Origin: Patescibacteria group bacterium
GTDB taxonomy: Bacteria; Patescibacteriota; Microgenomatia; Levybacterales; GWA1-39-11
DNA: 64,000 nt
NCBI GenBank assembly: GCA_035545675.1
Contig: DASZYA010000004.1
Location: forward strand, 6,519-70,518
Direction: 5' to 3'
Positions 1-44,547 of this stretch are shown here, piece after piece. The position numbers and the translations under genes are program-made. Under the pieces are notes generated by a model that worked only from the letters and a program-made list of their open reading frames with translations, did no database searches and had not been told where the DNA came from. Position 1 is the first letter of the stretch. Every line of letters begins with the position of its first letter.

Positions 1-1
1 T

Positions 2-1297
2 ATTATTGATCCGGAGGATGAGTATAAAGCGCTTTGTCATGCACTGGACGGAGAATATATTAATTTCTCAAAGAATTCTGAGGTTAAAATAAATCCTTTT
101 GCTCTAATTGCAGAAGATATGACAGACGCACAACTTGGTATAAAAATCTTGTCCCTTCATGGACTTCTTAAAACAATGCTTGGAGATATGACCCCGACTC
201 AGGAGGCAATTCTGGACCGTGCTATTGTTCTTTGTTATAAACAAAAGGGAATTACTCCAGATCCTGCAACCTATAAGCTTGAGCCACCAATCCTTGAGGA
301 TCTTTACAAAACTCTTCTAAATATGGAGGAGCCTGAAGCAAAAGATTTATCTTTTAGATTAGAAAAATATGTTAAGGGAGGATTTTCAGGATTATTTAAC
401 CAACAAACAAATTATGATGTTAAAAACCAATTAACTGTTTTCTCGTTAAGACAGCTTGAGGATGTATTACGCCCAATCGCAATGCATGTAATTCTGGACT
501 TTGTTTGGAATAGAGTTAGAACAAAACTTAAAAAAAGAATTTTGGTGGTAGATGAAGCTTGGTATCTTATGCAACATCCAGACTCAGCTAGCTTCCTTCA
601 GGGAATTGCAAAACGTGCAAGAAAATATTTCCTAGGGGTCACTACTCTAACTCAGGATATAGAAGACTTCCTTAATAATGATTATGGAAAATCAATTCTT
701 TCTAATTCTTCTGTTCAAATTCTTTTGAAACAAAATTCTTCTGAGGTAGAAACTCTTGCAAAAGCCCTCTTCTTATCAGAAGGGGAAAAACAATTCTTGG
801 TTACAGCTCAGGTTGGAGAAGGATTATTATTTGCTGGACAAAATCACATAACAGCCGCTTTTGTAGCCTCTTCCTCTGAATATGATCTTATTACTTCAAA
901 GCCTCAGGACATTATGGATGCACAAAATAATTCCGCTCCAGTAAATGAACCTATTGATGTACAAAGCACAGAAATTCCAATACCAACTGCGCCAATTCAA
1001 AACCCTGCTCAACCTCAAAATCAACCAATAGATAATAGTGAAATAAAAGTTGTATCAACCAACCCAACGCCAGTTATGCCACAACCCATACCTCAAACAA
1101 CCAACCCAACACTCACACAAACTGCGCCTACAAGTGGCGTACCCATTGCAAGCGTGTCTCAACCACAACAACCAACAACACTCGCCGGAATATCTCAACA
1201 GAATATGAACATAGGTAATTCAACTATCCAGGCTTCAGCTACACCAACCACACCCCAGACACCCCAAGTAGGATCAGTGGGTGGACAAAATGGCTAG
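2..1297 (+). CDS. VirB4/TrbE-family type IV secretion ATPase, C-terminal part (5' truncated by window edge); P/T/Q-rich low-complexity C-terminal tail
   Basis: The reading frame is open from position 2. It contains ILVVDEAWYLM (Walker B-like DEAW) and GVTTLTQD..SVQILLKQNS..GEGLLFAGQN, typical of the VirB4/TraC C-terminal ATPase domain. The last ~130 aa are a Pro/Thr/Gln-rich tail. Confidence 0.6.
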   Translation: MIDPEDEYKALCHALDGEYINFSKNSEVKINPFALIAEDMTDAQLGIKILSLHGLLKTMLGDMTPTQEAILDRAIVLCYKQKGITPDPATYKLEPPILEDLYKTLLNMEEPEAKDLSFRLEKYVKGGFSGLFNQQTNYDVKNQLTVFSLRQLEDVLRPIAMHVILDFVWNRVRTKLKKRILVVDEAWYLMQHPDSASFLQGIAKRARKYFLGVTTLTQDIEDFLNNDYGKSILSNSSVQILLKQNSSEVETLAKALFLSEGEKQFLVTAQVGEGLLFAGQNHITAAFVASSSEYDLITSKPQDIMDAQNNSAPVNEPIDVQSTEIPIPTAPIQNPAQPQNQPIDNSEIKVVSTNPTPVMPQPIPQTTNPTLTQTAPTSGVPIASVSQPQQPTTLAGISQQNMNIGNSTIQASATPTTPQTPQVGSVGGQNG

Positions 1298-2954
1298 CAC
1301 AACTTTAGATAAAGACCAAGATCAGTCAGTTGGGTATGGGGGACAACCCCCACAGACAGAAGATATTCAGAATCCTTTTCCAGGCGGAGAACCTCCAGAA
1401 GATGATCGTGATCAATCCAATCAAGAAAGCTTATCAGACAGAATTCGTAGCGGATACAACACCGCACAAAATATAAAAAGGTTCTCAGGTGCAGGACAAG
1501 CGGCTGAGGCCGGAGAAACTGCAGAAGCGGGGGCTGCGGCAGCAGAGGGCGCTGAGGCCGGTGCGGCGGCGGCTGAAGGCGCAACAGCTGGCGAAGCAAC
1601 TGCCGGAATAGGTGCTGCTGGAACAGCGGGGGCCGAAGCTGGAGCAGCCAGTGCTGCCGGATTAGAAGGGGCTGGAGCTATTGGTGGAGCTGGCTTGGCT
1701 GGGGCCGGGGCTGGAGCTGGAGCTGCAGGAAGTGCAGCTGCAACAGCGGGGGCTGCGGCAGCAACAGAGGCAGCAACGGTAACTGCAGTTGGCGTTGGAG
1801 CAACTCCCGTTGGATGGATAGCAGCAGCGATTGCTGCAGTAATAATTTTGATAATAATCATTGTAGTGTTTTTTAGCGGAAGTACCTCTACTCTTCCCGC
1901 TAATCAAACACAGACTAATCCAACAACCAGAACTGGAACCACCGGTACAGCTATTTGTGGTGGGGGTGGATCATCTGGATCTCTTAACTATTCTGTTTCG
2001 CTCAGAGACACTTCTGTTCTTCCCCAAAACGTAACAGCTGTTCAAAATGAAATAGCTAGTGAATTCCCAAATGCTCATCTTTATGATTGGGATCATGTTG
2101 TTGACTCAGCAGTCAGAGCCGGCTGGAATCCTTCCTTTATTCTTACTTTATGGATCGAAGAAAGTGGCGCTCAGGGTGCTTCCGGCTATACAGATGCTTT
2201 AGGCTGTGATCCAACACATCCAACAACGGATCTTAATAAAAGCTTAAATTGTGTTTTTAATTCTTTTAGAAATTACGATAATTTTGATGATTTTATGTGC
2301 GTATATGGAGGAGATGGATTCCATAAAGCCCCATGTACGTTTAATTCTGATAATCCAAATTTTCCGGGTAATATCCAGAAGTGGTATACAAAGCTTACCG
2401 GTGGAACAGACTCTAGTAGCCCAGCTTCTCCACTTGCTTGTGCGCCTGGTACCCCAGGAGACTGGCCAACAATGGGTCAAATATCTCAAGGTCCTCAGGG
2501 AGCAACTGATCATGCAAGACTAGCAACCTATGGTTGGAACGCAATTGATGTAGCCGGCGCGCCAGATGAAAAAATAAAATCTGCTTTTAACGGAACTGTG
2601 ACTGCGGTACATGATTGCATAAAAGACGGTGATTGCTCAGGTGGCTACAATGGATTTGGAAATTCTGTTGAAGTTACAACAAACACAGATAAGGGGTCGT
2701 TCACTACCCTGTATGGTCACTTATCAGAAATAGATGCAGTTATTAACTCAGATATTAAAGCTGGGGATCTAATTGGACTTATGGGAACAACGGGTCACTC
2801 AACGGGGGTTCATCTTCATTATCAATTTATCGGCGCCGACATGGCTCCACCAAACATTCCCCAGCCGATTGTCCCATTAGATTGTGATTCTATTGGCGCA
2901 TGTAATCCCGATCATATTCAACCCGGCGAGCTAAGCCCGACGCCAGCTATATAA
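1281..2954 (+). CDS. membrane-anchored peptidoglycan hydrolase: Ala/Gly/Glu-rich N-terminal region, one TM helix, putative lysozyme/SLT-like region (WIEESG) and C-terminal M23 (LytM) metallopeptidase domain
   Basis: M23 motifs: HxxxD-like GWNAIDVAG and GTTGHSTGVHLHYQF (HxH). There is a hydrophobic stretch WIAAAIAAVIILIIIIVVFF. The 5' end overlaps the VirB4-like ORF by 17 nt. Confidence 0.65.
   Translation: MDKMASTTLDKDQDQSVGYGGQPPQTEDIQNPFPGGEPPEDDRDQSNQESLSDRIRSGYNTAQNIKRFSGAGQAAEAGETAEAGAAAAEGAEAGAAAAEGATAGEATAGIGAAGTAGAEAGAASAAGLEGAGAIGGAGLAGAGAGAGAAGSAAATAGAAAATEAATVTAVGVGATPVGWIAAAIAAVIILIIIIVVFFSGSTSTLPANQTQTNPTTRTGTTGTAICGGGGSSGSLNYSVSLRDTSVLPQNVTAVQNEIASEFPNAHLYDWDHVVDSAVRAGWNPSFILTLWIEESGAQGASGYTDALGCDPTHPTTDLNKSLNCVFNSFRNYDNFDDFMCVYGGDGFHKAPCTFNSDNPNFPGNIQKWYTKLTGGTDSSSPASPLACAPGTPGDWPTMGQISQGPQGATDHARLATYGWNAIDVAGAPDEKIKSAFNGTVTAVHDCIKDGDCSGGYNGFGNSVEVTTNTDKGSFTTLYGHLSEIDAVINSDIKAGDLIGLMGTTGHSTGVHLHYQFIGADMAPPNIPQPIVPLDCDSIGACNPDHIQPGELSPTPAI
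1480..1800 (+). repeat. GC-rich low-complexity coding repeat (GCx-rich codons) encoding an (Ala/Gly/Glu)n stretch inside the hydrolase gene
   Basis: Runs of gctgaggccgg / gctggagc units stand out locally as a GC-rich patch in an AT-rich genome. They generate the spurious antisense ORFs 1294..1907. Confidence 0.6.
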
Positions 2955-2961
2955 TAAGACT

Positions 2962-4008
2962 ATGGAAAAAATAAAAACAATAAATCCTAAAATCTTATTA
3001 ATCATATTTCTTTTTCTGATAACCGTCATCTTAATGGCATTTCTAAGCCTTTTAATTGGCCCAAAAAGGAGCAATAAAACAATACCCGAATCTCTTACCC
3101 CCACCCCTGTTCAAGAACAAATTCCGGAGGACGCTGAAATTCCTACCCCCATTATCCAAAATCCGGCAAGCGTTATAACAAATAATCTTGGTCAAGTAAG
3201 CTTCTCTGTTCTAAATCTTTCAATTCCCAAGGAAATGAATATTTACAGCGCAGAACCCGCTCCAATAGATCAGACAACGGCAGACTCAATTGCTCAAAAA
3301 CTAGGGATCGAAACCAAGGGCAAGATTACAACAACAACCAACGGAGACGCGATGAGTTTTTCAGACAAATCAATCAACCTTATTTTTTATCTGACTTCTG
3401 GAAACACTCAATACTTCAACAGCTTAGCAAGCACTAATCAAACACAAGGCAAGAATCTGAATGATTTACAAAATACATCTAAAAATTTCATGGATCTTTT
3501 TTCTCCTTTATCCGATGGGCTCATTATTGATGAGAAAAACACCTCTTTCATCACTGGTAGCGGAGATACAGAGAGCGTACCAAGCTTTGATCAGGCAACA
3601 ATTATAAACATTCCTTTTATACAAACAGTTGATGGTCTACCACTCTATTCACAATTTGGAAGCAACACGCAGGGAAGTGTTTCTATTAATAAAAATGGAC
3701 AAATATTAAGAGTGATACTTAACACCAAGCAGATATTGCTAGCCAAAAAATCTATCCCCACACTAACATTGGATGCAGCCAAAAAGGCCGTAATCAATGG
3801 AAACGCTGTCATAGCAAAGTATGGAACAGATAATGAGGTTTCTCTTCCAAATCCACAAAGTACATTATTCACAAAGGTAAGCTTAGGATATCTAAGAGAT
3901 ACAACAGCAAAACTCCTCTACCCAATCTTTATATTTGAAGGAGTAGCAACAACCGGAGGACAAAACTATCCAATAACAATCTATCTGACAGCTTACGCAA
4001 CTAATTAA
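2962..4008 (+). CDS. hypothetical N-terminally anchored extracellular protein (possible T4SS-associated component)
   Basis: It has a single N-terminal hydrophobic helix (ILLIIFLFLITVILMAFLSLLIG) followed by a hydrophilic Thr/Asn/Ser-rich domain. I recognise no motif in it. Confidence 0.4.
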   Translation: MEKIKTINPKILLIIFLFLITVILMAFLSLLIGPKRSNKTIPESLTPTPVQEQIPEDAEIPTPIIQNPASVITNNLGQVSFSVLNLSIPKEMNIYSAEPAPIDQTTADSIAQKLGIETKGKITTTTNGDAMSFSDKSINLIFYLTSGNTQYFNSLASTNQTQGKNLNDLQNTSKNFMDLFSPLSDGLIIDEKNTSFITGSGDTESVPSFDQATIINIPFIQTVDGLPLYSQFGSNTQGSVSINKNGQILRVILNTKQILLAKKSIPTLTLDAAKKAVINGNAVIAKYGTDNEVSLPNPQSTLFTKVSLGYLRDTTAKLLYPIFIFEGVATTGGQNYPITIYLTAYATN

Positions 4009-5105
4009 TCCTGAACCCTGACAGGCATAATAATGTGAATAAAATCCGGATCACTTTCCGATTTAAAGACTGCCGGCTCAACAGGAGACAGAAGGTCAAT
4101 TATCACTTCCTTATCTTGAATATTTTTAAGAGCGTCTGTTATGTATTTAATATTAAAAGAACTCTCATTGTCGTCCCCATCTTGTTTAACAACCAATTCA
4201 ACATCTCCTTGCCCTAAACCACTAGACTGAGAATGCATTTCAATTTTTCCATCACTAACCGTGAGCTTAACAACATTAGCACTATCCCTGGCAAAAATAG
4301 ATGCGAGTTTTAATTTCTGATTTAACTCCTCACTATCAACAACTATTTCTGTCTTATGGTTCTTTGGTATAACTCTTTGATAGTTAGGAAAATCTCCATT
4401 AATAAGTCTGCCGACAAAAAGAACGTCTCCTGACTCGAAGATGACCTGGTTTGCTTTCTGATAAACAAACATAGAAATCGCTCCACTAGTTTTAGCACTT
4501 AACACTTCTGCGATAATTCTTGATGGAATAATAAGGTTTGCGTCTATATCCATCTTTCTACCTTTAATTTTCTTCAAAGATAGTCTAAAACCATCCGTTG
4601 CGGCAAAATCAAGTTCGTCTCCGTTTTGAGATACATATACCCCTGTTAATTCAGGTCTTCCTTCGTCGAGGGACGCTGCAAAAATCACTTTTGAAAAGAT
4701 ATTATTCATCTCGTTTTCTGAAAACTCATAAATCTTGTCTCCGTACTCTTCAAAAAGAGTAGGGAATTCTTCTCTAGCTATTGTCTGAAGAGTAACCTTA
4801 TTATCTCGACATTTAACAATTAGACTATCTTTTTCAAGTGTTAGGCTCACTTTGTCTTTAGGAAAAGAAGATAAAACCTCTATAAATTGTTTTCCGGGAA
4901 TTGTTGTTGACCCATTCTCCTCAACTTTTCCTGGAATTTTAATCCTTACACCAATTTCTAGATTCGTTGCACAAAGAAATATTCCGTTTTCATTTGCATC
5001 AATTAATATATTGGAAAGTACTGGGATTTGGGATCTTACTGGAAGAATTTTTGAAATAGTTGGTAAGAAACCTTCAACGTTTTCTATTAGGAAATCTGCT
5101 TTCAT
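4005..5105 (-). CDS. dnaN: DNA polymerase III beta subunit (sliding clamp)
   Basis: 366 aa with a three-domain clamp-like sequence (MKADFLIENVEGFLPTISKI...IPGKQFIEVL). It lies immediately downstream of dnaA on the same strand. Confidence 0.85.
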   Translation of the reverse strand: MKADFLIENVEGFLPTISKILPVRSQIPVLSNILIDANENGIFLCATNLEIGVRIKIPGKVEENGSTTIPGKQFIEVLSSFPKDKVSLTLEKDSLIVKCRDNKVTLQTIAREEFPTLFEEYGDKIYEFSENEMNNIFSKVIFAASLDEGRPELTGVYVSQNGDELDFAATDGFRLSLKKIKGRKMDIDANLIIPSRIIAEVLSAKTSGAISMFVYQKANQVIFESGDVLFVGRLINGDFPNYQRVIPKNHKTEIVVDSEELNQKLKLASIFARDSANVVKLTVSDGKIEMHSQSSGLGQGDVELVVKQDGDDNESSFNIKYITDALKNIQDKEVIIDLLSPVEPAVFKSESDPDFIHIIMPVRVQD

Positions 5106-5241
5106 ATATTATATATATTAGTAGTCGTAGTAGTATATGTGGACAAGTGGAAAAAAGCAACGAAGCACGCCTGTAAAAATGTGGAAAACCTACTGATAAC
5201 TTTGTGAATAATGTGTTGATATTTTTCTATACCCATTTTTA
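5106..5241. promoter_or_regulatory. candidate oriC segment: AT-rich unwinding stretch plus cluster of DnaA-box-like 9-mers between dnaA and dnaN
   Basis: TGTGGACAA (5138-5146), TGTGGAAAA (5180-5188) and TGTGAATAA (5203-5211) are each 1 mismatch from TGTGGATAA, all in the same orientation. They are preceded by ttcatatattatatatattag (5101-5125). Confidence 0.5.
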
Positions 5242-6576
5242 TTAAAGAGAGATATCCTCTTTTATCTTCCTTTTTATAAACGACATTTCCTCACGAGTCT
5301 TATCCGAGTTTTCAAGAGTTTTCCCTATCTTTTCCACAGCGTGCATAACGGTTGAGTGATCGCGTCCGCCGAGAAGGTTTCCTATTTCAACATATGTAAG
5401 TCCTGCCTCTTCTTTTAGAAGATACATACACATGTGGCGGGGCCCTACCAGGTAAGAATCTCGCTTCACTCCTTTTAGTTGTGTAGTTTTAAGATTGTAG
5501 TAAGTGCAAATTGCGTCAATTATGGCATCTGGTCTGAAAACCACTTTGGTTTGGGTTTTGTTGACCATTGGTAGAATTGTTTCTGGGGTTATATCTCCTG
5601 CTCCGTGTATCGAAGATAGTTTTAGTAAAAATCCTTCTAATGCTCGGGCATCTTCTATGTTTTCCGCAATTGCCTTTGCAGCCTCCAGGGATAAATTTAG
5701 TCCATATTTTTTACTCTTAATAAGAAGTATTGCCGTTCTTAACTCAAAATCCGGTGGCTGAATATCAACGGATAGTCCGCCCTCAAACCTTGAAGCGAGT
5801 CTTGCCTCTAATTTCCTTATTTCAGAAGGTGGTCTATCTGAAGAAAATATAATTTGACCGCCACGATCTATGAGTGCATTAAAAGTGTGGAAAAGTTCTT
5901 CTTGAACCCTGTCTTTCCCGGCTAAAAATTGGATATCGTCAAGTAGAAGTATGTCTACATTTCTGAACTTTTTTCTTATGTCTGCTGTCGTTTTGTCTCT
6001 TATAGCTTCAACTACTTCGTTTGTAAACTCTTCTGTTGTCATATAGATAACTTTTGTGTTGTCATTTTCGGCAAAAACTTTGTTTGCTACCGCATTCATA
6101 AGATGGGTTTTTCCGACTCCTACTGTTCCATAGAAAAACAAAGGGTTATAGCGTGTTCCAGGATTTTGAGCAACGGTTGTCGCAGCCGTATAAGCGAGTT
6201 GGTTGCTTTCTGAAACAGCCAAGGAGTCAAATGTATAATCTGGTCTAATTCTTGCAGGGAGCCCTTTCCTAGCCGATAATTGAACGTCTTTTGCAAAAAG
6301 AGGCGTATCAAGCGTTTTTTTAGATGTAGGTACGTTTCTGCCTTCGGAGGTAAAAACTAAGCTAATATTACTATTAGTCTTTTTATCTAGAACCTTTTTG
6401 ATGAGTGAGTAATATCTTTTTTCCACATAGTCAGCGGTGATGTGGGTTGGTGCATCTATTGTTGCTATGGAATTCTCCAGAGAAACAAGAATAATAGGCT
6501 TAAAAAAAGTGAGAAATATTGGTTTTGAAACCTCTACTTCAATTTCAGCTAGTACTTGCTTCCAAAGATCTTCCAT
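5242..6576 (-). CDS. dnaA: chromosomal replication initiator protein DnaA
   Basis: AAA+ Walker A GTVGVGKTHLMNAV, a DnaA domain IV-like C-terminus (LKEEAGLTYVEIGNLLGGRDHSTVMHA), 444 aa. Confidence 0.9.
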   Translation of the reverse strand: MEDLWKQVLAEIEVEVSKPIFLTFFKPIILVSLENSIATIDAPTHITADYVEKRYYSLIKKVLDKKTNSNISLVFTSEGRNVPTSKKTLDTPLFAKDVQLSARKGLPARIRPDYTFDSLAVSESNQLAYTAATTVAQNPGTRYNPLFFYGTVGVGKTHLMNAVANKVFAENDNTKVIYMTTEEFTNEVVEAIRDKTTADIRKKFRNVDILLLDDIQFLAGKDRVQEELFHTFNALIDRGGQIIFSSDRPPSEIRKLEARLASRFEGGLSVDIQPPDFELRTAILLIKSKKYGLNLSLEAAKAIAENIEDARALEGFLLKLSSIHGAGDITPETILPMVNKTQTKVVFRPDAIIDAICTYYNLKTTQLKGVKRDSYLVGPRHMCMYLLKEEAGLTYVEIGNLLGGRDHSTVMHAVEKIGKTLENSDKTREEMSFIKRKIKEDISL

Positions 6577-6621
6577 AAGGGGAAAAATAAAACACTCCGA
6601 GCAGAGAACAAAGTATACGAA

Positions 6622-6630
6622 TGTGGATAA
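6622..6630. promoter_or_regulatory. perfect DnaA box (TGTGGATAA = reverse complement of TTATCCACA) upstream of dnaA
   Basis: Exact 9-mer at 6622-6630, in the dnaA upstream/divergent promoter region. Confidence 0.55.
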
Positions 6631-6695
6631 CTTTTTGTCAAGGGGAAATGAAGCAAATAATACTCCACTCTTTTGATATACTGAATAAAGAATTT

Positions 6696-9089
6696 ATGAG
6701 AATAGGACTTTTTACCGAGGGATTTTTTCCACAGCCAAACGGTGTTTCAGTAAGCGTTTTTGAGACAGCCAAGGAGTTAGAAAAACGGGGACATAATGTT
6801 ATTGTGGTTGCACCAAAATACCCAGGCTTTGTGGACAAGGAGCTAGATGTTATAAGACTTGCTTCTGTTAAAGTTCAAGAAGAAGCAAATATTAGAGTTG
6901 CATTAGCGCTTCCAGATACATCTTTTAGACGAGTTTTAGCTACAGACTTCGACTTGATACATGCACATAGTGGTGGTCCGATAACTCTTTTAGGTTCACA
7001 GATTGCTAAAAGCAAAGACATACCAATAGTCATTACTTATCACACACTTTGGAATAGATATACCCACTATTTTTTGAAAGGAAAAGTTGTTACCCCAAAA
7101 ATGATGGAGAGAGCAACAAAAATATTTGGTAATACCTTTGATTATCTTATCGCGCCAAGTGAAAGAGTTGAGAAAGAGCTTAAAAAATATGGAGTGAGGC
7201 GCCCCATAGCAGTTGTTCCAAGTGGAATTGATACTGAAAAATTTAACAAAGCAGAAAAAGGATTCCTGAGAAAAATAACAGGCATAAAAGATGCGCCAAT
7301 TGTTTTATTTGTTGGGAGAGTTGGAAGGGAAAAAAACGTGGATTTCTTAATAAGGTCATTTCGTGAGGTAGCGAAAAGGTCTGACGCACACCTAGTAATA
7401 GTTGGAGAAGGAAGAGATAGAAAAAAGTTAGAGGCTCTTGTTAAAAAGCTTGATTTAGAAAAAAGAGTACATTTTACAGGGTTAATAAATAACTCAGAGA
7501 TCCAAAAGGTTTATAAAGATGCAACTGTTTTTGTTTTTGCTTCCACCACAGAAACCCAAGGCTTAATAATCCCAGAGGCTTTGGCAAGCGGGGTTCCGGT
7601 AGTTGTGGTAGATGATCCAGCCTACAACTGCGTTGAAGATGGGAAAAATGGTTTCGTTGTAAAAAAGAACATTAATGAGTTTGCTCTAAAAACACTTGCC
7701 GTAATTGAGAACAAGGAGCTTAGAAAAAAACTATCAGAGCAAGCGATCATTACAGCAGAATCTCTTTCTGTCAAAAAAACAGTAGACAAACTAGAATCAG
7801 TTTATTTCGGTCTACTTAATAAGTATAACGAAGAAAGCGTAGCAAGAATCATGGGTCAAAATGAAAAAAGTGAGCGCATTTTTGTTGTAGACCTGGTATT
7901 CTTTGCAACTGTAATTGTCTTAAGGTTTGCTGCTCTCTTAGGGGATCACGCTACTTACCCAGCTCTATTCTTCCAAAATCAAATTATTTATCACACGGCT
8001 ATTGGTCTTTTTTTGATTTTGATGTTTTTGGCAGCCCTATTTAGAAAAAGAGATGTTGGTCTTATTCCCTTGGTAATGCTAGGAGTGGGTTTAGGCCTAA
8101 TAATAGATGAGGCCTGGTCAATAGTTGGAATACATGCAACATACCAAAATTACTGGAACCCACTAAATCTTTTGGCAATTCTTCTTGTTGGTGTTGTGCC
8201 CCCACTTCTTATAAGAAATAAGATTTCTGATAGACCAAAGTTTTATATTTCAACAAGAGAACAGAGACACGTTAATCCCGAGAACCCAAAGGTAAGCGTT
8301 GTAATACCTGCATATAATGAAGGCAATTTTATTGCCCCAACTCTTAAAAGTCTTCTCAACCAAACATACAAGAATTTTGAGTTAATAGTTGTGGATAACT
8401 CTTCAACTGATAACACTAGCGATGTTGCCGCAAGTTTTGGAGCGCGCGTAATTAAACAACACGTAACAGGCGTTGCCGCTACCCGTCAGGCAGGGTTCTT
8501 TGAGTCAAAAGGTGAAATTGTTGTATCAACTGATGCAGACTCCATAGTTCCCGAGAATTGGATAGAAAGAATTGTGGAAAAGTACAACAAAAACAAAAAA
8601 CTATCTGCTTACGGTGGATTGAATTATCTATATTCTGGGCCAGTTACAGCAAGAGCTGCCGGAAGATATCTGTTCCCAATATTCTGGAGAATAGATAGGA
8701 TTGTTAACCACGGTTGGAATTTGGTTGGATTTAATATGTCTGCAAGAAAAGATGCATTTATTAAGGTTGGAGGATTTAACTCTGATCTTAAGATGGGAGA
8801 GGATATAGATCTTTCTCAAAAACTTAGGACAGTTGGGGACATAGAGATTGACGATAGTCTTTTGGTTTATTCTTCCGGCAGGCGTTACAAGGATGGTCTC
8901 TTTGCAGGACTTACTGCTTACGTTCCCTTTTGGATATCAAAAATTCTTCTTAAGAAAGACAAGCCATTTGAATTCAAAGCAGTAAGGAGTGAAAAGAGTA
9001 ACAAAAAAGGATTTGCCTATCTACCGCTATGCGTTGTTTCTCTTCTTCTTGTGGCAATGTTTCTACTAGCCAATCCCGCCTTATTCTAG
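6696..9089 (+). CDS. fused glycosyltransferase: N-terminal GT4-family domain, central polytopic membrane segment, C-terminal GT2-family domain
   Basis: GT4-like motif ETQGLIIPEALASGVPVVV with Rossmann folds; about 5 hydrophobic helices (residues ~420-530); GT2 motif VSVVIPAYNEGNFIAPTLKSLLNQTYKNFELIVVDNSSTDNT. The ORF is open from 6621, but the start is assigned to Met26 (ATG 6696), since 6621 overlaps the DnaA box. Confidence 0.7.
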   Translation: MRIGLFTEGFFPQPNGVSVSVFETAKELEKRGHNVIVVAPKYPGFVDKELDVIRLASVKVQEEANIRVALALPDTSFRRVLATDFDLIHAHSGGPITLLGSQIAKSKDIPIVITYHTLWNRYTHYFLKGKVVTPKMMERATKIFGNTFDYLIAPSERVEKELKKYGVRRPIAVVPSGIDTEKFNKAEKGFLRKITGIKDAPIVLFVGRVGREKNVDFLIRSFREVAKRSDAHLVIVGEGRDRKKLEALVKKLDLEKRVHFTGLINNSEIQKVYKDATVFVFASTTETQGLIIPEALASGVPVVVVDDPAYNCVEDGKNGFVVKKNINEFALKTLAVIENKELRKKLSEQAIITAESLSVKKTVDKLESVYFGLLNKYNEESVARIMGQNEKSERIFVVDLVFFATVIVLRFAALLGDHATYPALFFQNQIIYHTAIGLFLILMFLAALFRKRDVGLIPLVMLGVGLGLIIDEAWSIVGIHATYQNYWNPLNLLAILLVGVVPPLLIRNKISDRPKFYISTREQRHVNPENPKVSVVIPAYNEGNFIAPTLKSLLNQTYKNFELIVVDNSSTDNTSDVAASFGARVIKQHVTGVAATRQAGFFESKGEIVVSTDADSIVPENWIERIVEKYNKNKKLSAYGGLNYLYSGPVTARAAGRYLFPIFWRIDRIVNHGWNLVGFNMSARKDAFIKVGGFNSDLKMGEDIDLSQKLRTVGDIEIDDSLLVYSSGRRYKDGLFAGLTAYVPFWISKILLKKDKPFEFKAVRSEKSNKKGFAYLPLCVVSLLLVAMFLLANPALF

Positions 9090-21967: not shown

Positions 21968-23179
21968 CTATCTTTTGTTTGCGTTTCCAAGAGCGGCTAC
22001 TGCTGCTCCAATTCTTCCAGCTTCTTCAATATTTACAAAATGGATGGATTTTTGCGTTAATCTTTTTGCCACTTCTTGAGCTATTTCTTTATAGCCTGGC
22101 ACCTTCCAGAACAATGACCCCTCAACAGGTATTTGTAATTGCTCTTCTGTAAACGTTTCTGGAAATGCTTTTGTAATTCCAGCGATCATAACTCCAACTA
22201 GTTGTGCAGATCTGTTTCTAAGTCTTTCTGCTGCTTCAATAAGCATTGGGTTTCCTTGGGTAGTTATTAAAAGATTTGTGATTGTTTCACTGTCTAGGTT
22301 CGAGGGTATATGGGGTATTCCTTCTCTTGAAAGTTCTTGTGCAACTATTTCCATTTGTTGGCCTAGCCAAAGCCCTGAAATCTGTTTTTCGGCTAAATAT
22401 TTTCCCGTCATACCACTTCTGCCACTTTGTCTGTCAACAATTTTTGCTAACTCGTTTAATGGAAAGCCAGAAAAACTTCCCGATTCTGTATTTATTACGC
22501 CATTTGGAGTATCTGCTGCAAGATTGAATCCTGTCCCCACTACTCCCCCAAGTTTTGCCCCATCGGAAAAAACCACTGCAACCGTATCATTCATTACAGA
22601 GGTTGGGGTGTTTGCATCTATTCCATAGTTTTGGGAAAGACTTTCTCTAAGCGCCTGGCCGACGGGTAATTTACTTATACCCGGAATTACAAATTCTTTT
22701 GTGAGTTGTTCCGGGGAAACAATATCTACTCCACCATCTGTTTTAACTGCTTGACCCGGGAATGAATAAACAATTCCAATAGCATCAATGTTTCCTTGAT
22801 CTAGCATTGGCGCAACACCGTTTGCTATGTGGGCAAAAAATTCATCAGCGCTTCTAAATTCTCTTCCTGGTAAAGCTGCTCTTTGAGAATCTTGTATTGA
22901 TGGTTTGCTATTTTCTATGGCAACGCGTGCTCCATACAAATTTGTTCCTCCAATCTCAACTATTAAAGCCTGACTACCTTCTCTTAAATCAGAAAGAGAT
23001 ACTGAGGATAATAAGGATGGATACATAGGAAGTCCTTTTTCACCATGCGTATCTAAGCCATCTTTTAGAGCAGTAATATAATCATCAACCGCTTGTCTTT
23101 CTTCCTGTTCATTAAGTGGGCGCAGATTCGTTCTTTCAAAGAATTCAACATCGTTTAGTTTTTCGCGCATATTGTGCAT
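21968..23179 (-). CDS. hexokinase-family sugar kinase
   Basis: LIVEIGGTNLYGARV (phosphate-1) and GVVGTGFNLAADTP (hexokinase GTG.N motif), 403 aa. Confidence 0.5.
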   Translation of the reverse strand: MHNMREKLNDVEFFERTNLRPLNEQEERQAVDDYITALKDGLDTHGEKGLPMYPSLLSSVSLSDLREGSQALIVEIGGTNLYGARVAIENSKPSIQDSQRAALPGREFRSADEFFAHIANGVAPMLDQGNIDAIGIVYSFPGQAVKTDGGVDIVSPEQLTKEFVIPGISKLPVGQALRESLSQNYGIDANTPTSVMNDTVAVVFSDGAKLGGVVGTGFNLAADTPNGVINTESGSFSGFPLNELAKIVDRQSGRSGMTGKYLAEKQISGLWLGQQMEIVAQELSREGIPHIPSNLDSETITNLLITTQGNPMLIEAAERLRNRSAQLVGVMIAGITKAFPETFTEEQLQIPVEGSLFWKVPGYKEIAQEVAKRLTQKSIHFVNIEEAGRIGAAVAALGNANKR

Positions 23180-42183: not shown

Positions 42184-44547
42184 TTGAATAGGACAGATCG
42201 TTCCGACCCGCCAGTCAACGAGACCTTCAAGACCTTCGTTACGCCTTATGTTGCTCCCTTCGAGCGATTCGGGCAGAACGACGGCAGAGAGGTCGGCGGC
42301 AAGGTAGCCAACATCGGTGAGATGATTCGGGCAGAAATACCCGTACCCGATGGGTTCGCCATCAAGGTGAGCGCATGGGATCGTTTCATCGAGTACAACA
42401 ACCTGATGCCGCGCATCCTCGAACTTCACGAGGGTCTCGACTTCAGGAACGAAGGCGAGCGTCATGAGCGCTCAAATCACCTCATGGCACTCATTAAGGG
42501 TGCTAGTATGCCTCCGGATGTCGCTCAAGACATCAGGCAGGCGTACCGTCTGCTCTCTGGTTCGACCGACGTACGAGTGGCGGTAAGATCTTCGGCTACG
42601 GCTGAGGACCTTGCTAAAGCTTCGAGCGCCGGCGAGTACGACTCCAAGCTCAACGTTTACGGAGAGGTGGACGTCGTAGTTGCAGTACAGGCGGTATTCG
42701 CGTCAGTGTTCACTGCTCGCGCGATGCTCTATCGCGATCAAAACGGCATTCCCTTCACGGGAGTTAAGATGGCCGTTGCGGTTATGAGGATGGTTCAGTC
42801 CGTAAGGTCTGCCATCGTTTTCACCGCGGACCGCATTTCCGGCAACCGAAACGTTATGTCGATGACAATCGGCATGGGTCTCGGCGAGACGCTGGTCCAG
42901 AGCACGGTTACTGCCGACTTCATCAAGGTCGACAGGGCGAGGCGCACGATCATTTCCAGGATAATCGGTAGTCAAACTCACCAGATGGTGTGGTCCGATG
43001 ACCTGCGAAAGAACATCGACGTTGAGATCGAACCCGAACTCCGGGACGCTCCCAAGGCCGATGAGGTGCAGACCCTGGATTTGGCCGACATCTGCGAAAT
43101 GGTGGAACGACACTACGGGCGTCCCCGCGACATCGAAGCCGCGATGGCCCCCAATGGTCGTTGGTACATCGTTCAGTCACGTGACTGTACGACTCCCCTG
43201 ATCGAGGACGAGCCCGAACCGGCAGTCGCGCTCAGGCCGTTTGTTACTGGTATCGAAGCTTCCGCAGGGATTGCTTCGGGCCCAGTTCGAATCATCCGGA
43301 CGCTGCAAGATCTTCACGCGTTCAGCGAGGGAGATATTCTCGTCACCGAGATGACCACTCCCGACATGCTTGACGAGATGGAGCTGGCCGCCGCCGTTGT
43401 TGCGGAAATCGGTACCTCCAACTCGCATGCTGCAATCGTTTGCGGAGAGATGGAAACCCCATGTGTTGTGGGAGCGGACGGAGTTATGTCTCTCCTTCGC
43501 GATGGGGACATCATCACCGTGGATGGTAGCCATGGCAAGGTGTATAGGGGAGAAATTCCTGAGCTCTTGGCCTGGCACGATCGGCGTGAAGCTCGGCTGA
43601 CCAAGCTGGCAGAAGAAGGTGAGAAGGTAAAAACCCGCACAAAGATTGGGTTGATCGCCGCCACGCCTCGAGCTGCTGTCAAGCTGGCCCGCCGAAACGT
43701 CGACATGGTATGTCTCTATCGTACGGAGCTAGCGGTTAGCCGCCTCAAGTTGCACCCTCGCGTCTTCGACGCTCAGGGCCGACGAGAGGTGTTCATTCGA
43801 AGCCTGGTTGACTCCATGTCTGCCTACTGCGAGGCATTTTTTCCCCGTTACCTTGCAGATAACAGCAAGGGCCTCGTGGTCGTTCGGACTCTCGACTACA
43901 AAGATGACGAGATGGCTCGACTCGAAGGCTCGGAGCTGTACGAAAAGCCCGGCAAGAACTTTATGCTGGGTAAGCGGGGACTTTTCCGTTACGAATGGGA
44001 TCATGTTACACACGAGATGGAGACTGAGGCACTCAAACGAGTCGCCCAGAAGTATCCTAACCTCGTCGTGATGGTGCCGTTCCCGCGGACGCCCGAAGAA
44101 CTCGGACGTGTCACCGCCAAGTTGGTTGAGCGAGGCCTCAATGTCCCTCTGTGGGCTATGGCTGAGGTACCGCTAACCATTATGTATCTCGAGGAGTTTG
44201 TTGATGCTTGCCAAGGCCGACTCAAGGGTCTGTCGATCGGTAGCAACGATGCGCTTCAGGGACTCATGATGGTTGACCGCGAAGATCCAATTCTCGCCGC
44301 CCACGCTGAGTACTCGGAGAACCATCCGCTCATGCGTCGGACTTTCGTCGACATCGTTCGTCGAGGTAAGGCAAGGGGTCTCACGGTCAGTCTGTGTGGT
44401 AATGCTGTCAGCAAATTCCCGGAAATCGCCGCGGATTTGGTGGAAGCAGGAATTGATTCCATTGGGGTTGATCCGCGCAAGGCTGACATCGTTCGCAACA
44501 TCGTCAAGGAGACTGAGGAGAGGCTCGGCATTACGCTCGAAGCATAA
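42184..44547 (+). CDS. ppsA: phosphoenolpyruvate synthase (pyruvate, water dikinase)-like PEP-utilizing enzyme; sits in a ~58% GC island
   Basis: N-terminal GGKVANIGEM (PPDK_N ATP-grasp); phosphohistidine swivel domain GTSNSHAAIVCGEMETPCVVG; C-terminal TIM-barrel PEP-binding domain (SIGSNDALQGLM; SLCGNAVSKFPE). 787 aa, similar to E. coli PpsA at 792 aa. Its codon usage and GC are wholly unlike the flanks. Confidence 0.75.
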   Translation: MNRTDRSDPPVNETFKTFVTPYVAPFERFGQNDGREVGGKVANIGEMIRAEIPVPDGFAIKVSAWDRFIEYNNLMPRILELHEGLDFRNEGERHERSNHLMALIKGASMPPDVAQDIRQAYRLLSGSTDVRVAVRSSATAEDLAKASSAGEYDSKLNVYGEVDVVVAVQAVFASVFTARAMLYRDQNGIPFTGVKMAVAVMRMVQSVRSAIVFTADRISGNRNVMSMTIGMGLGETLVQSTVTADFIKVDRARRTIISRIIGSQTHQMVWSDDLRKNIDVEIEPELRDAPKADEVQTLDLADICEMVERHYGRPRDIEAAMAPNGRWYIVQSRDCTTPLIEDEPEPAVALRPFVTGIEASAGIASGPVRIIRTLQDLHAFSEGDILVTEMTTPDMLDEMELAAAVVAEIGTSNSHAAIVCGEMETPCVVGADGVMSLLRDGDIITVDGSHGKVYRGEIPELLAWHDRREARLTKLAEEGEKVKTRTKIGLIAATPRAAVKLARRNVDMVCLYRTELAVSRLKLHPRVFDAQGRREVFIRSLVDSMSAYCEAFFPRYLADNSKGLVVVRTLDYKDDEMARLEGSELYEKPGKNFMLGKRGLFRYEWDHVTHEMETEALKRVAQKYPNLVVMVPFPRTPEELGRVTAKLVERGLNVPLWAMAEVPLTIMYLEEFVDACQGRLKGLSIGSNDALQGLMMVDREDPILAAHAEYSENHPLMRRTFVDIVRRGKARGLTVSLCGNAVSKFPEIAADLVEAGIDSIGVDPRKADIVRNIVKETEERLGITLEA

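Follow-up and report, generated by a model that had tools for sequence, protein, structure and literature searches.

What is the three-gene module, a VirB4-family ATPase followed by a cell-wall hydrolase and a membrane-anchored protein, that lies directly against the replication origin of a Patescibacteria chromosome? The module occupies positions 1..4008 of a 64,000-nucleotide stretch of contig DASZYA010000004.1 (assembly GCA_035545675.1), the whole of which is called the window below. An initial annotation, made from the letters alone, had proposed a type IV secretion system (T4SS)-like module of Gram-positive type with a hint of conjugation, and every feature that it described was recovered, position by position. 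We favor, with a probability of roughly 0.8, the reading that 1..4008 is the 3′ end of a chromosomal, vertically inherited T4SS operon of Microgenomates-type Patescibacteria, and that this system, a derivative of the monoderm MPF-FATA class, is a non-conjugative machine for interaction with a host cell. The products of its last three genes would then be the energizing ATPase, an enzyme that opens the cell wall, and, probably, a regulator of the latter.

Patescibacteria, which account for a large part of bacterial diversity, spend their lives attached to other cells, and the chromosomal T4SS of one of them, Southlakia, was the first shown to be essential for its own carrier bacterium. The initial annotation had implied that the arrangement in the window was new. 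T4SS genes near dnaA/dnaN in Patescibacteria have, however, already been published (PMC12102498), and the present locus is a further case of them: the finding is real and largely ordinary, one more instance of a documented arrangement that leaves the general picture unchanged.

A VirB4 operon beside dnaN and dnaA

The operon part of the window contains the following features.

2..1297, plus strand: 3′ part of virB4, C-terminal 431 aa (Pfam and NCBIfam matches; likeness to the VirB4 of the relative L006)
~2..870, plus strand: ATPase core of VirB4 with Walker B (RILVVDEAW)
~870..1294, plus strand: P/T/Q-rich, disordered low-complexity tail of VirB4, ~140 aa
1290..2954, plus strand: predicted membrane-anchored bifunctional peptidoglycan hydrolase, VirB1/PrgK analogue (open reading frame list and sequence; identical to NCBI protein P0121)
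1290..1811, plus strand: N-terminal region of the hydrolase, predicted cytoplasmic, acidic/proline-rich and then A/G/E-rich low-complexity (translation)
1812..1880, plus strand: single transmembrane (TM) helix WIAAAIAAVIILIIIIVVFF, ~aa 178-200 (hydropathy scan; position conserved in the alignment)
1983..2402, plus strand: lysozyme-fold domain, called LZ here, with the motif LTLWIEESGAQG and an invariant E-E (fold match; no curated sequence model)
2535..2831, plus strand: Peptidase_M23 (LytM) domain, aa 419-517 (PF01551)
2962..4008, plus strand: 348-aa protein: N-terminal TM anchor, then P/T-rich linker, then tandem alpha/beta domains with the YycH/YycI/YpeB (PepSY-like) fold

Profile searches identify the first gene as a VirB4-family ATPase, as had been proposed. 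The translation of 2..1297 (frame 2) matched P-loop_TraG (PF19044) in Pfam with E 4.5e-25 (88.6 bits; cut-off 25.8) and, in NCBIfam, the VirB4-like CD1110 family NF045971 (E 2.5e-68), F-type TraC (1.8e-42), and VirB4_CagE (1.7e-27), the last three all falling on the C-terminal third of the models. The CD1110 score of 231 bits lies below the whole-protein cut-off of 325 because the window holds only the last third of VirB4. The closest relative, represented by the loci L006/L007/L009, is syntenic on both sides, with a hydrolase 75% identical to that of the window and an almost identical VirB4 C-terminus. Its full-length VirB4 (L006, 747 aa), to whose C-terminal half the window fragment is almost identical by eye, reaches 419 bits against the same CD1110 cut-off and also carries the N-terminal CagE_TrbE_VirB domain PF03135 (21.8 bits; cut-off 21). 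Judged from L006 (GKSGSGKS), Walker A lies outside the window, ~22 aa upstream of its start. CD1110 (CTn2, MPF-FATA) being the best VirB4 model, the analogy with Gram-positive T4SS drawn in the initial annotation is apt.

The three genes are tightly packed. The hydrolase gene, which starts at ATG 1290, overlaps the end of virB4 (stop at 1295-1297) by 8 nt (ATGGCTAG), an overlap conserved in L006, and only a 7-nt gap separates the hydrolase gene from the gene for the 348-aa protein. A scan found no excess of internal promoters or terminators across the operon genes of the window. Operon coupling is proposed because of this overlap, the short gap, and the lack of surplus internal signals. The host also looks as expected, CPR-like (candidate phyla radiation): the nearest named homologues of VirB4 and the hydrolase come mostly from metagenome-assembled genomes (MAGs) of Beckwith-, Woese-, Shapiro-, Levy-, and Daviesbacteria and of the 'Microgenomates group', and among the best 120 VirB4 homologues the named matches are all from CPR or unclassified MAGs, bar one partial protein labelled Rhabdochlamydiaceae.

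Like the window, the contigs of L005 and L008 start inside virB4, and in L002 the gene is broken. In L002 (ERZ23287679 NODE_634), whose VirB4 is 82% identical, the frame opens only 17 codons before 'IIDPEDEY', just past the expected Walker A (8310..8520), and virB4 abuts a divergent 5′-3′ exonuclease gene; the same 12-kb contig has a second block of M23 gene, gene for a 348-aa homologue, and dnaN/dnaA. The join just after Walker A reflects either a rearranged origin region or a chimeric assembly.

Conservation in relatives and the question of conjugation

The initial annotation had placed the rest of the system upstream of the window. The corresponding region of L006 reads as follows, in gene order.

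Gene 1: giant protein, at least 2,604 aa, no domain matches (1..5607, together with gene 2)
Gene 2: 589-aa protein, P/T-rich, no matches
Gene 3: 412-aa PrgI/VirB3-like membrane protein with a C-terminal CarboxypepD_reg-like domain (PF12666, 35.3 bits against 27)
Gene 4: 219-aa TrsD-like protein (NF041427, E 1.7e-5, sub-threshold; N-terminal part of the VirB4 model of a Mycoplasma integrative and conjugative element (ICE), 1.7e-8)
End of operon: VirB4 (747 aa), hydrolase, and 348-aa protein, followed on the opposite strand by dnaN and dnaA

The expectation was thus borne out for PrgI/VirB3-like and TrsD-like genes, which stand directly before virB4, and not for VirD4, VirB6, VirB8, or a relaxase, none of which was recognized in the 10 kb upstream in L006. 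The giant and the 589-aa protein have no match in Pfam, NCBIfam, or the PDB. Both are encoded on the same strand as the PrgI-like gene. The giant protein contains internal repeats, a scan of its C-terminal 1,263 aa predicted no TM helix, and L018 encodes a homologue of it in the corresponding position (3..3326, E 2e-36). The giant protein may act in the system as a secreted or surface protein.

To extend the comparison, one genome per GTDB species was scanned for the WIEESG domain of the hydrolase (LZ), giving 22 loci that were annotated with phmmer queries and purpose-built hidden Markov models (HMMs); a narrower alignment based on the 348-aa protein gave 4 metagenome loci. A cassette of PrgI-like gene, TrsD-like gene, virB4, and LZ gene converges on dnaN/dnaA in at least 11 species-level Microgenomates-type genomes (L009, L012, L015-L022, L026). 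The same cassette occurs in the metagenome locus L031, and truncated versions are present in L010, L011, and L033. Both the PrgI-like and the TrsD-like gene precede virB4 in 17 loci examined (L009 counted, its duplicates L006-L008 not), and the VirB4 cluster stands beside dnaN/dnaA in the window and in L003, L005, L009-L012, L015-L022, L026, L031, and L033. This conservation is a vertical, chromosomal pattern and not that of a mobile element.

These data bear directly on the idea that the module is part of an integrated conjugative element or a plasmid remnant whose T4SS conjugates DNA in the manner of pCF10, pCW3, or CTn2. The top VirB4 models are indeed conjugation families (CD1110, TraC, the Mycoplasma ICE VirB4), and a hydrolase gene after the VirB4 gene is the usual order in Gram-positive conjugative operons. 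The cassette, however, keeps the same chromosomal spot in those 11 or more genomes although their VirB4 proteins have diverged, and it is therefore considered to be vertically inherited. Nor was there any signal of a relaxase, coupling protein, or integrase in the relatives' 10 kb upstream or in the window open reading frames (ORFs) tested; the nine of at least 400 aa and the L006 upstream genes yielded no relaxase or coupling protein in scans that used no MOB- or type IV coupling protein (T4CP)-specific profiles, and no VirD4 or VirB8 either. Relaxases are scarce in the group as a whole, being found in 103 of 3,035 Patescibacteria genomes and seldom near virB4 (PMC12102498). Conjugation is accordingly very improbable here, and the hint of it in the initial annotation is not upheld.

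Because neither a relaxase nor a coupling protein was recognized near the cassette in these scans, the machine probably serves an epibiotic lifestyle, through protein export or exchange of macromolecules with the host cell, and not plasmid conjugation. The opposite direction of transport has also to be weighed, namely import: a device of the Ced type, or one based on a pilus, would take up DNA, RNA, or nucleotides from the host and so feed a cell unable to make its own. A missing relaxase and T4CP would suit a system that does not export DNA, VirB4 weakly resembles CedB and CedD, ATPases of DNA import in archaea (E 2e-5 to 6e-10), and a 2026 preprint describes a cultivated Patescibacterium that feeds on host RNA and forms tubular structures, maybe T4SS pili, at the host interface. 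However, no Ced membrane components were identified, the T4SS link in the preprint is circumstantial, and transport direction is not readable from sequence, with no direct evidence for any substrate. We regard import as unlikely and retain the broader reading of a host-interaction T4SS.

This reading agrees with what is known of Patescibacteria. A survey of 3,035 genomes found VirB4 in ~80%, forming a monophyletic clade nested in MPF-FATA, often with TrsD and PrgI/VirB3 beside virB4, and with dnaA, dnaN, rnpA, and rpmH abundant around virB4 in Paceibacteria and Microgenomatia, for which a gene-dosage rationale was proposed (Quiñonero-Coronel et al. 2025, PMC12102498). The T4SS of Southlakia epibionticum (genes 0006-0019) is essential for epibiotic growth and lacks a recognizable relaxase or coupling protein (Wang et al. 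2023, PMC10633639), and a 2025 review, which likewise states that neither is recognizable in the Southlakia cluster, treats Patescibacteria T4SSs as an established new branch (PMC12857230). The locus studied here shares with these systems the MPF-FATA-affine VirB4, the TrsD-like and PrgI/VirB3-like neighbors (in the relatives), a peptidase/lysozyme-type hydrolase directly 3′ of virB4, and the position beside dnaA/dnaN. Neither a relaxase nor a coupling protein was recognized close to it among the genes scanned. There are also differences. In the survey only 22.6% of Microgenomatia VirB3 homologues were near virB4, and recognizable VirB1 homologues were mostly unlinked to virB4 outside Paceibacteria (PMC12102498), whereas in every cassette examined here an unannotated LZ family adjoins VirB4 and the PrgI-like gene lies two genes upstream. 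Unlike described Patescibacteria T4SSs, moreover, this lineage showed no VirB2 pilin array or VirB6 in the sampled 10 kb.

Two other Microgenomates-type loci have genes of that general shape. Just upstream of the PrgI-like gene, L026 (1179..4656) and L019 (2830..5261) carry 3-5 small proteins of 96-158 aa with 2-3 predicted TM helices, together with a polytopic membrane protein (in L026, 552 aa with 7 TM helices). By topology only, these fit a VirB2-like pilin array and a VirB6-like subunit; searches with these candidates detected no counterpart in the window or in the upstream 10 kb of L006.

The predicted wall hydrolase and its membrane-anchored neighbor

The second gene was expected to encode a membrane-anchored protein with an M23 peptidase and a lysozyme/SLT-like region, and the TM helix, the fold of the middle domain, and a PF01551 match agree with this. 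The NCBI entry (P0121, 554 aa, named 'M23 family metallopeptidase') starts at ATG 1290, with GTG 1281 as an alternative. Both low-complexity extensions noted initially, the PTQ-rich tail of VirB4 and the AG-rich cytoplasmic region of the hydrolase, are present. In the alignment the A/G-rich stretch is shared by the nearest homologues, P0122 and P0123, and absent from more distant ones. It raises local GC and gives spurious antisense ORFs: three of 81-146 aa lie opposite it at 1294..1907 (minus strand) and are by-products of GC-rich low-complexity sequence, not genes.

The lysozyme/SLT-like assignment of the WIEESG region stood at the level of fold and fell at the level of sequence. The homologue alignment delimits a conserved domain of 150 aa with an invariant W-x-E-E-x-G. 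Its predicted helical structure matches LytB GH73 (10.5), a C. difficile glucosaminidase (8.9), MltF (7.8), FlgJ (7.5), g-type lysozyme (7.3), Slt70 (7.2), and the Tn916-like Orf17 hydrolase (6.2). The domain has no sequence match in Pfam, SLT PF01464 included, NCBIfam, PHROGs, or a PDB profile search, so that calling it a lysozyme holds at the fold level only.

The M23 domain is recognized readily (PF01551, E 2.2e-15, 57 bits; cut-off 28.7), with EnvC and DipM among the top M23/LytM structural matches. Membership of the family is clear; its catalytic competence is uncertain because the GHL and HLH (HxH) motifs are kept while HxxxD reads WNAID, with the Asp kept and the His replaced by Trp, and because this first-His position varies in homologues (W/L/A/E/H). 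An invariant His ~13-17 residues upstream of the HxxxD Asp (TDHARL) might substitute for the missing one.

LZ is paired with differing C-terminal modules; the closest relatives have M23, P0131 has CHAP, and further types occur in other members. Such a modular pattern resembles that of monoderm VirB1-type hydrolases. As in PrgJ-PrgK of Enterococcus pCF10 and TraE-TraG of pIP501, an ATPase gene is followed here by one for an N-terminally membrane-anchored multi-domain peptidoglycan hydrolase. PrgK and TraG have Pfam-recognizable SLT and CHAP domains, whereas the present protein combines a distinct lysozyme-fold family lacking an SLT HMM match with M23 and has no CHAP; and the pCF10 and pIP501 systems, unlike this locus, are plasmid-borne and conjugative, with relaxase and T4CP. 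An LZ family missed by current HMM libraries would explain the apparent absence of VirB1 beside virB4 in Microgenomatia.

The third gene starts 7 bases past the hydrolase gene, and its stop overlaps that of the convergent dnaN. As anticipated, its product of 348 aa carries an N-terminal TM helix and is predicted to be extracytoplasmic beyond it. Searches of Pfam, NCBIfam, PHROG, and PDB profiles returned no annotation at sequence level, and neither the protein nor its homologues has a meaningful Pfam or PDB sequence match, including to Pfam PepSY, YycH, or YycI. A word-indexed search gave only two homologues; exhaustive phmmer gave 202 clusters at 50% identity, nearly all of ~310-370 aa among the matches listed. 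An AlphaFold2 model built on a 60-sequence alignment (pLDDT 93.8, pTM 0.82) matched 5coz, YycH, and YycI in Foldseek with probability 1.00. With its TM anchor and tandem PepSY-like domains, the protein belongs among the YycH/YycI/YpeB-type anchored regulators. The initial annotation had suggested comparison with VirB8 or pilins; the VirB8-like OrfG received a Foldseek probability of 0.13, and a VirB8 (NTF2-fold) or pilin identity is ruled out by the fold evidence.

Gene context suggests a partner. A member of the 348-aa family lies directly 3′ of an M23-bearing gene in all nine distinct loci with a visible upstream gene (the window, the L006 group, L010, L011, L012, L002, L031, L032, L033). 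This adjacency is kept down to 28-29% identity and includes L002 and L032, where the upstream M23 protein lacks LZ. None of the 16 LZ loci without M23 carries a full-length family member. In Bacillus spores, YpeB is co-transcribed with the cortex-lytic enzyme SleB, which needs it; PepSY domains have been proposed as peptidase inhibitors; and YycH and YycI control the WalK wall-hydrolase regulon. Because of the fold, the M23 gene context, and these precedents, the 348-aa protein is read as a partner of the hydrolase, and the analysis suggests that it regulates the M23 enzyme. It differs from SleB-YpeB and YycH/YycI in lacking detectable sequence similarity to them and in its predicted partner, an M23/lysozyme-fold enzyme tied to a secretion system in place of a spore cortex-lytic enzyme or a histidine kinase.

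Taken further, the 348-aa family could be an unrecognized T4SS accessory of Microgenomates-type Patescibacteria, a membrane protein of YycH/YycI/YpeB fold by which the M23/lysozyme-fold hydrolase is gated, an extension of the structural models that we put forward tentatively and hold to be somewhat doubtful. The protein might also replace the VirB8 scaffold, which surveys fail to find in most Patescibacteria. If this were true, the 348-aa and LZ families together would supply the 'missing VirB1' of this class. The virB4-linked, unannotated lysozyme-fold family and its YycI/YpeB-fold partner seem to be absent from the Patescibacteria T4SS literature. The LZ family and, as a second by-product of the analysis, a well-folded, operon-linked candidate regulator can both be tested biochemically without cultivation.

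In the mechanism that we envisage, a VirB4 hexamer docked on the PrgI/VirB3-like protein would power assembly and the passage of substrates through a membrane channel, as expected from the family. Translation of the hydrolase is probably coupled to that of VirB4. The protein would cross the membrane once and expose a lysozyme-fold glycosidase and an M23 peptidase domain, which would make room for the machine by local opening of the cell's own peptidoglycan, and perhaps of the host wall, as VirB1, PrgK, or TraG do. The anchored 348-aa protein would bind the M23 hydrolase and restrain, stabilize, or position it, as YpeB does for SleB. The roles given to the hydrolase domains and the 348-aa protein are predictions from modeled structures and gene order.

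Several observations weigh against this account. The 5′ half of virB4 and everything upstream lie outside the window, and the upstream picture is taken from relatives. No VirB6-, VirB8-, VirB2-, or VirD4-like gene was identified in either the window or the upstream 10 kb of the closest relative, which leaves a complete channel in this lineage hypothetical. Since the first His of the canonical HxxxD is missing from the M23 domain, this domain may have no catalytic activity, as in activators of the LytM type. The association of the 348-aa family with M23 is phylogenetically confounded, the M23-bearing loci being the closest relatives, and L027 carries LZ and M23 with neither a 348-aa homologue nor VirB4 nearby. 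Five of the 22 LZ loci (L013, L014, L027, L028, L030) have no VirB4 within 10 kb.

This last point, and the roles of the top structural matches (EnvC, DipM, YycH/YycI) in general wall homeostasis, would fit housekeeping genes for wall remodeling, for example a division-site M23 factor and a YycH/YycI-type regulator, that merely lie beside virB4. Against such an accident of position stand the 8-nt overlap with virB4, which L006 shares, and the survey, in which the LZ gene directly adjoins virB4 in 12 of the 22 genome loci and lies no more than 6 kb away in another 4 (L023, L024, L025, L029, where it is placed 3-6 kb upstream of PrgI-TrsD-VirB4), 16 of 22 in all, despite LZ domains only ~31-55% identical to that of the window. 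In Southlakia, moreover, peptidase and lysozyme homologues immediately 3′ of virB4 are essential for epibiotic growth, according to the passage of PMC12102498 that cites Wang 2023. A housekeeping role apart from the T4SS thus appears improbable, and assignment of both genes to the secretion operon is preferred.

The origin side and the remainder of the window

The operon runs into the replication origin region, as first described.

4005..5105, minus strand: dnaN, DNA polymerase III beta clamp, convergent with the T4SS operon (Pfam domains on an identical Logan contig; synteny annotation)
5106..5241: dnaN-dnaA spacer, candidate oriC segment, with three DnaA-box-like 9-mers (5138, 5180, 5203)
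5242..6576, minus strand: dnaA (ORF list; Pfam on the identical Logan contig)
6577..6695: region upstream of dnaA, with a perfect DnaA box (6622..6630) overlapping a promoter-like TTGACA-18-TATACT (6641->6612, minus strand)

DnaA-box-like 9-mers number 34 in the 64 kb against 17.5 ± 4.2 expected, and 12 of the 34 cluster in 3152..6838; the cumulative GC-skew minimum falls at ~4-6 kb. The dnaA promoter-like site, an 11/12 sigma-70-like match, is the strongest in the first 7 kb and carries the only perfect DnaA box nearby. Such an overlap of box and promoter (6612..6641) is the arrangement classically associated with dnaA autoregulation. Should oriC be located at dnaA or adjoin it, the leftward fork would meet transcription of the entire T4SS operon, and in relatives that of the giant gene as well, head-on. 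Since minus-strand genes also form a long run at ~21-37 kb of the window, gene-strand bias seems weak in this genome.

Next to dnaA, 6696..9089 (plus strand) holds an 822-aa ORF (797 aa from the likelier ATG 6696) that fuses a GT4 glycosyltransferase part, monoglucosyl-diacylglycerol-synthase-like, to a TM block and a GT2 glycosyltransferase; the same GT4-TM-GT2 fusion occupies this place in L006. The rest of the window is ordinary chromosome, with ClpB, RuvB, sigma-70, DnaG, ComM-like, and PBP1 genes. At 42184..44547 (plus strand) lies a gene for phosphoenolpyruvate synthase (pyruvate, water dikinase; PPDK_N, PEP-utilizers, PEP-utilizers_C; NF005057, E 9e-171), within a sharply bounded island at ~42.2-44.7 kb of 53-58% GC against a genome of ~37% GC, which looks like a recent horizontal acquisition. 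Finally, 21971..23179 (minus strand) encodes a 403-aa protein with the eukaryote-type domains Hexokinase_1 (E 9e-15) and Hexokinase_2 (E 2e-18) and no NCBIfam match; a glucose kinase with eukaryote-type hexokinase domains may be unusual in a bacterium.

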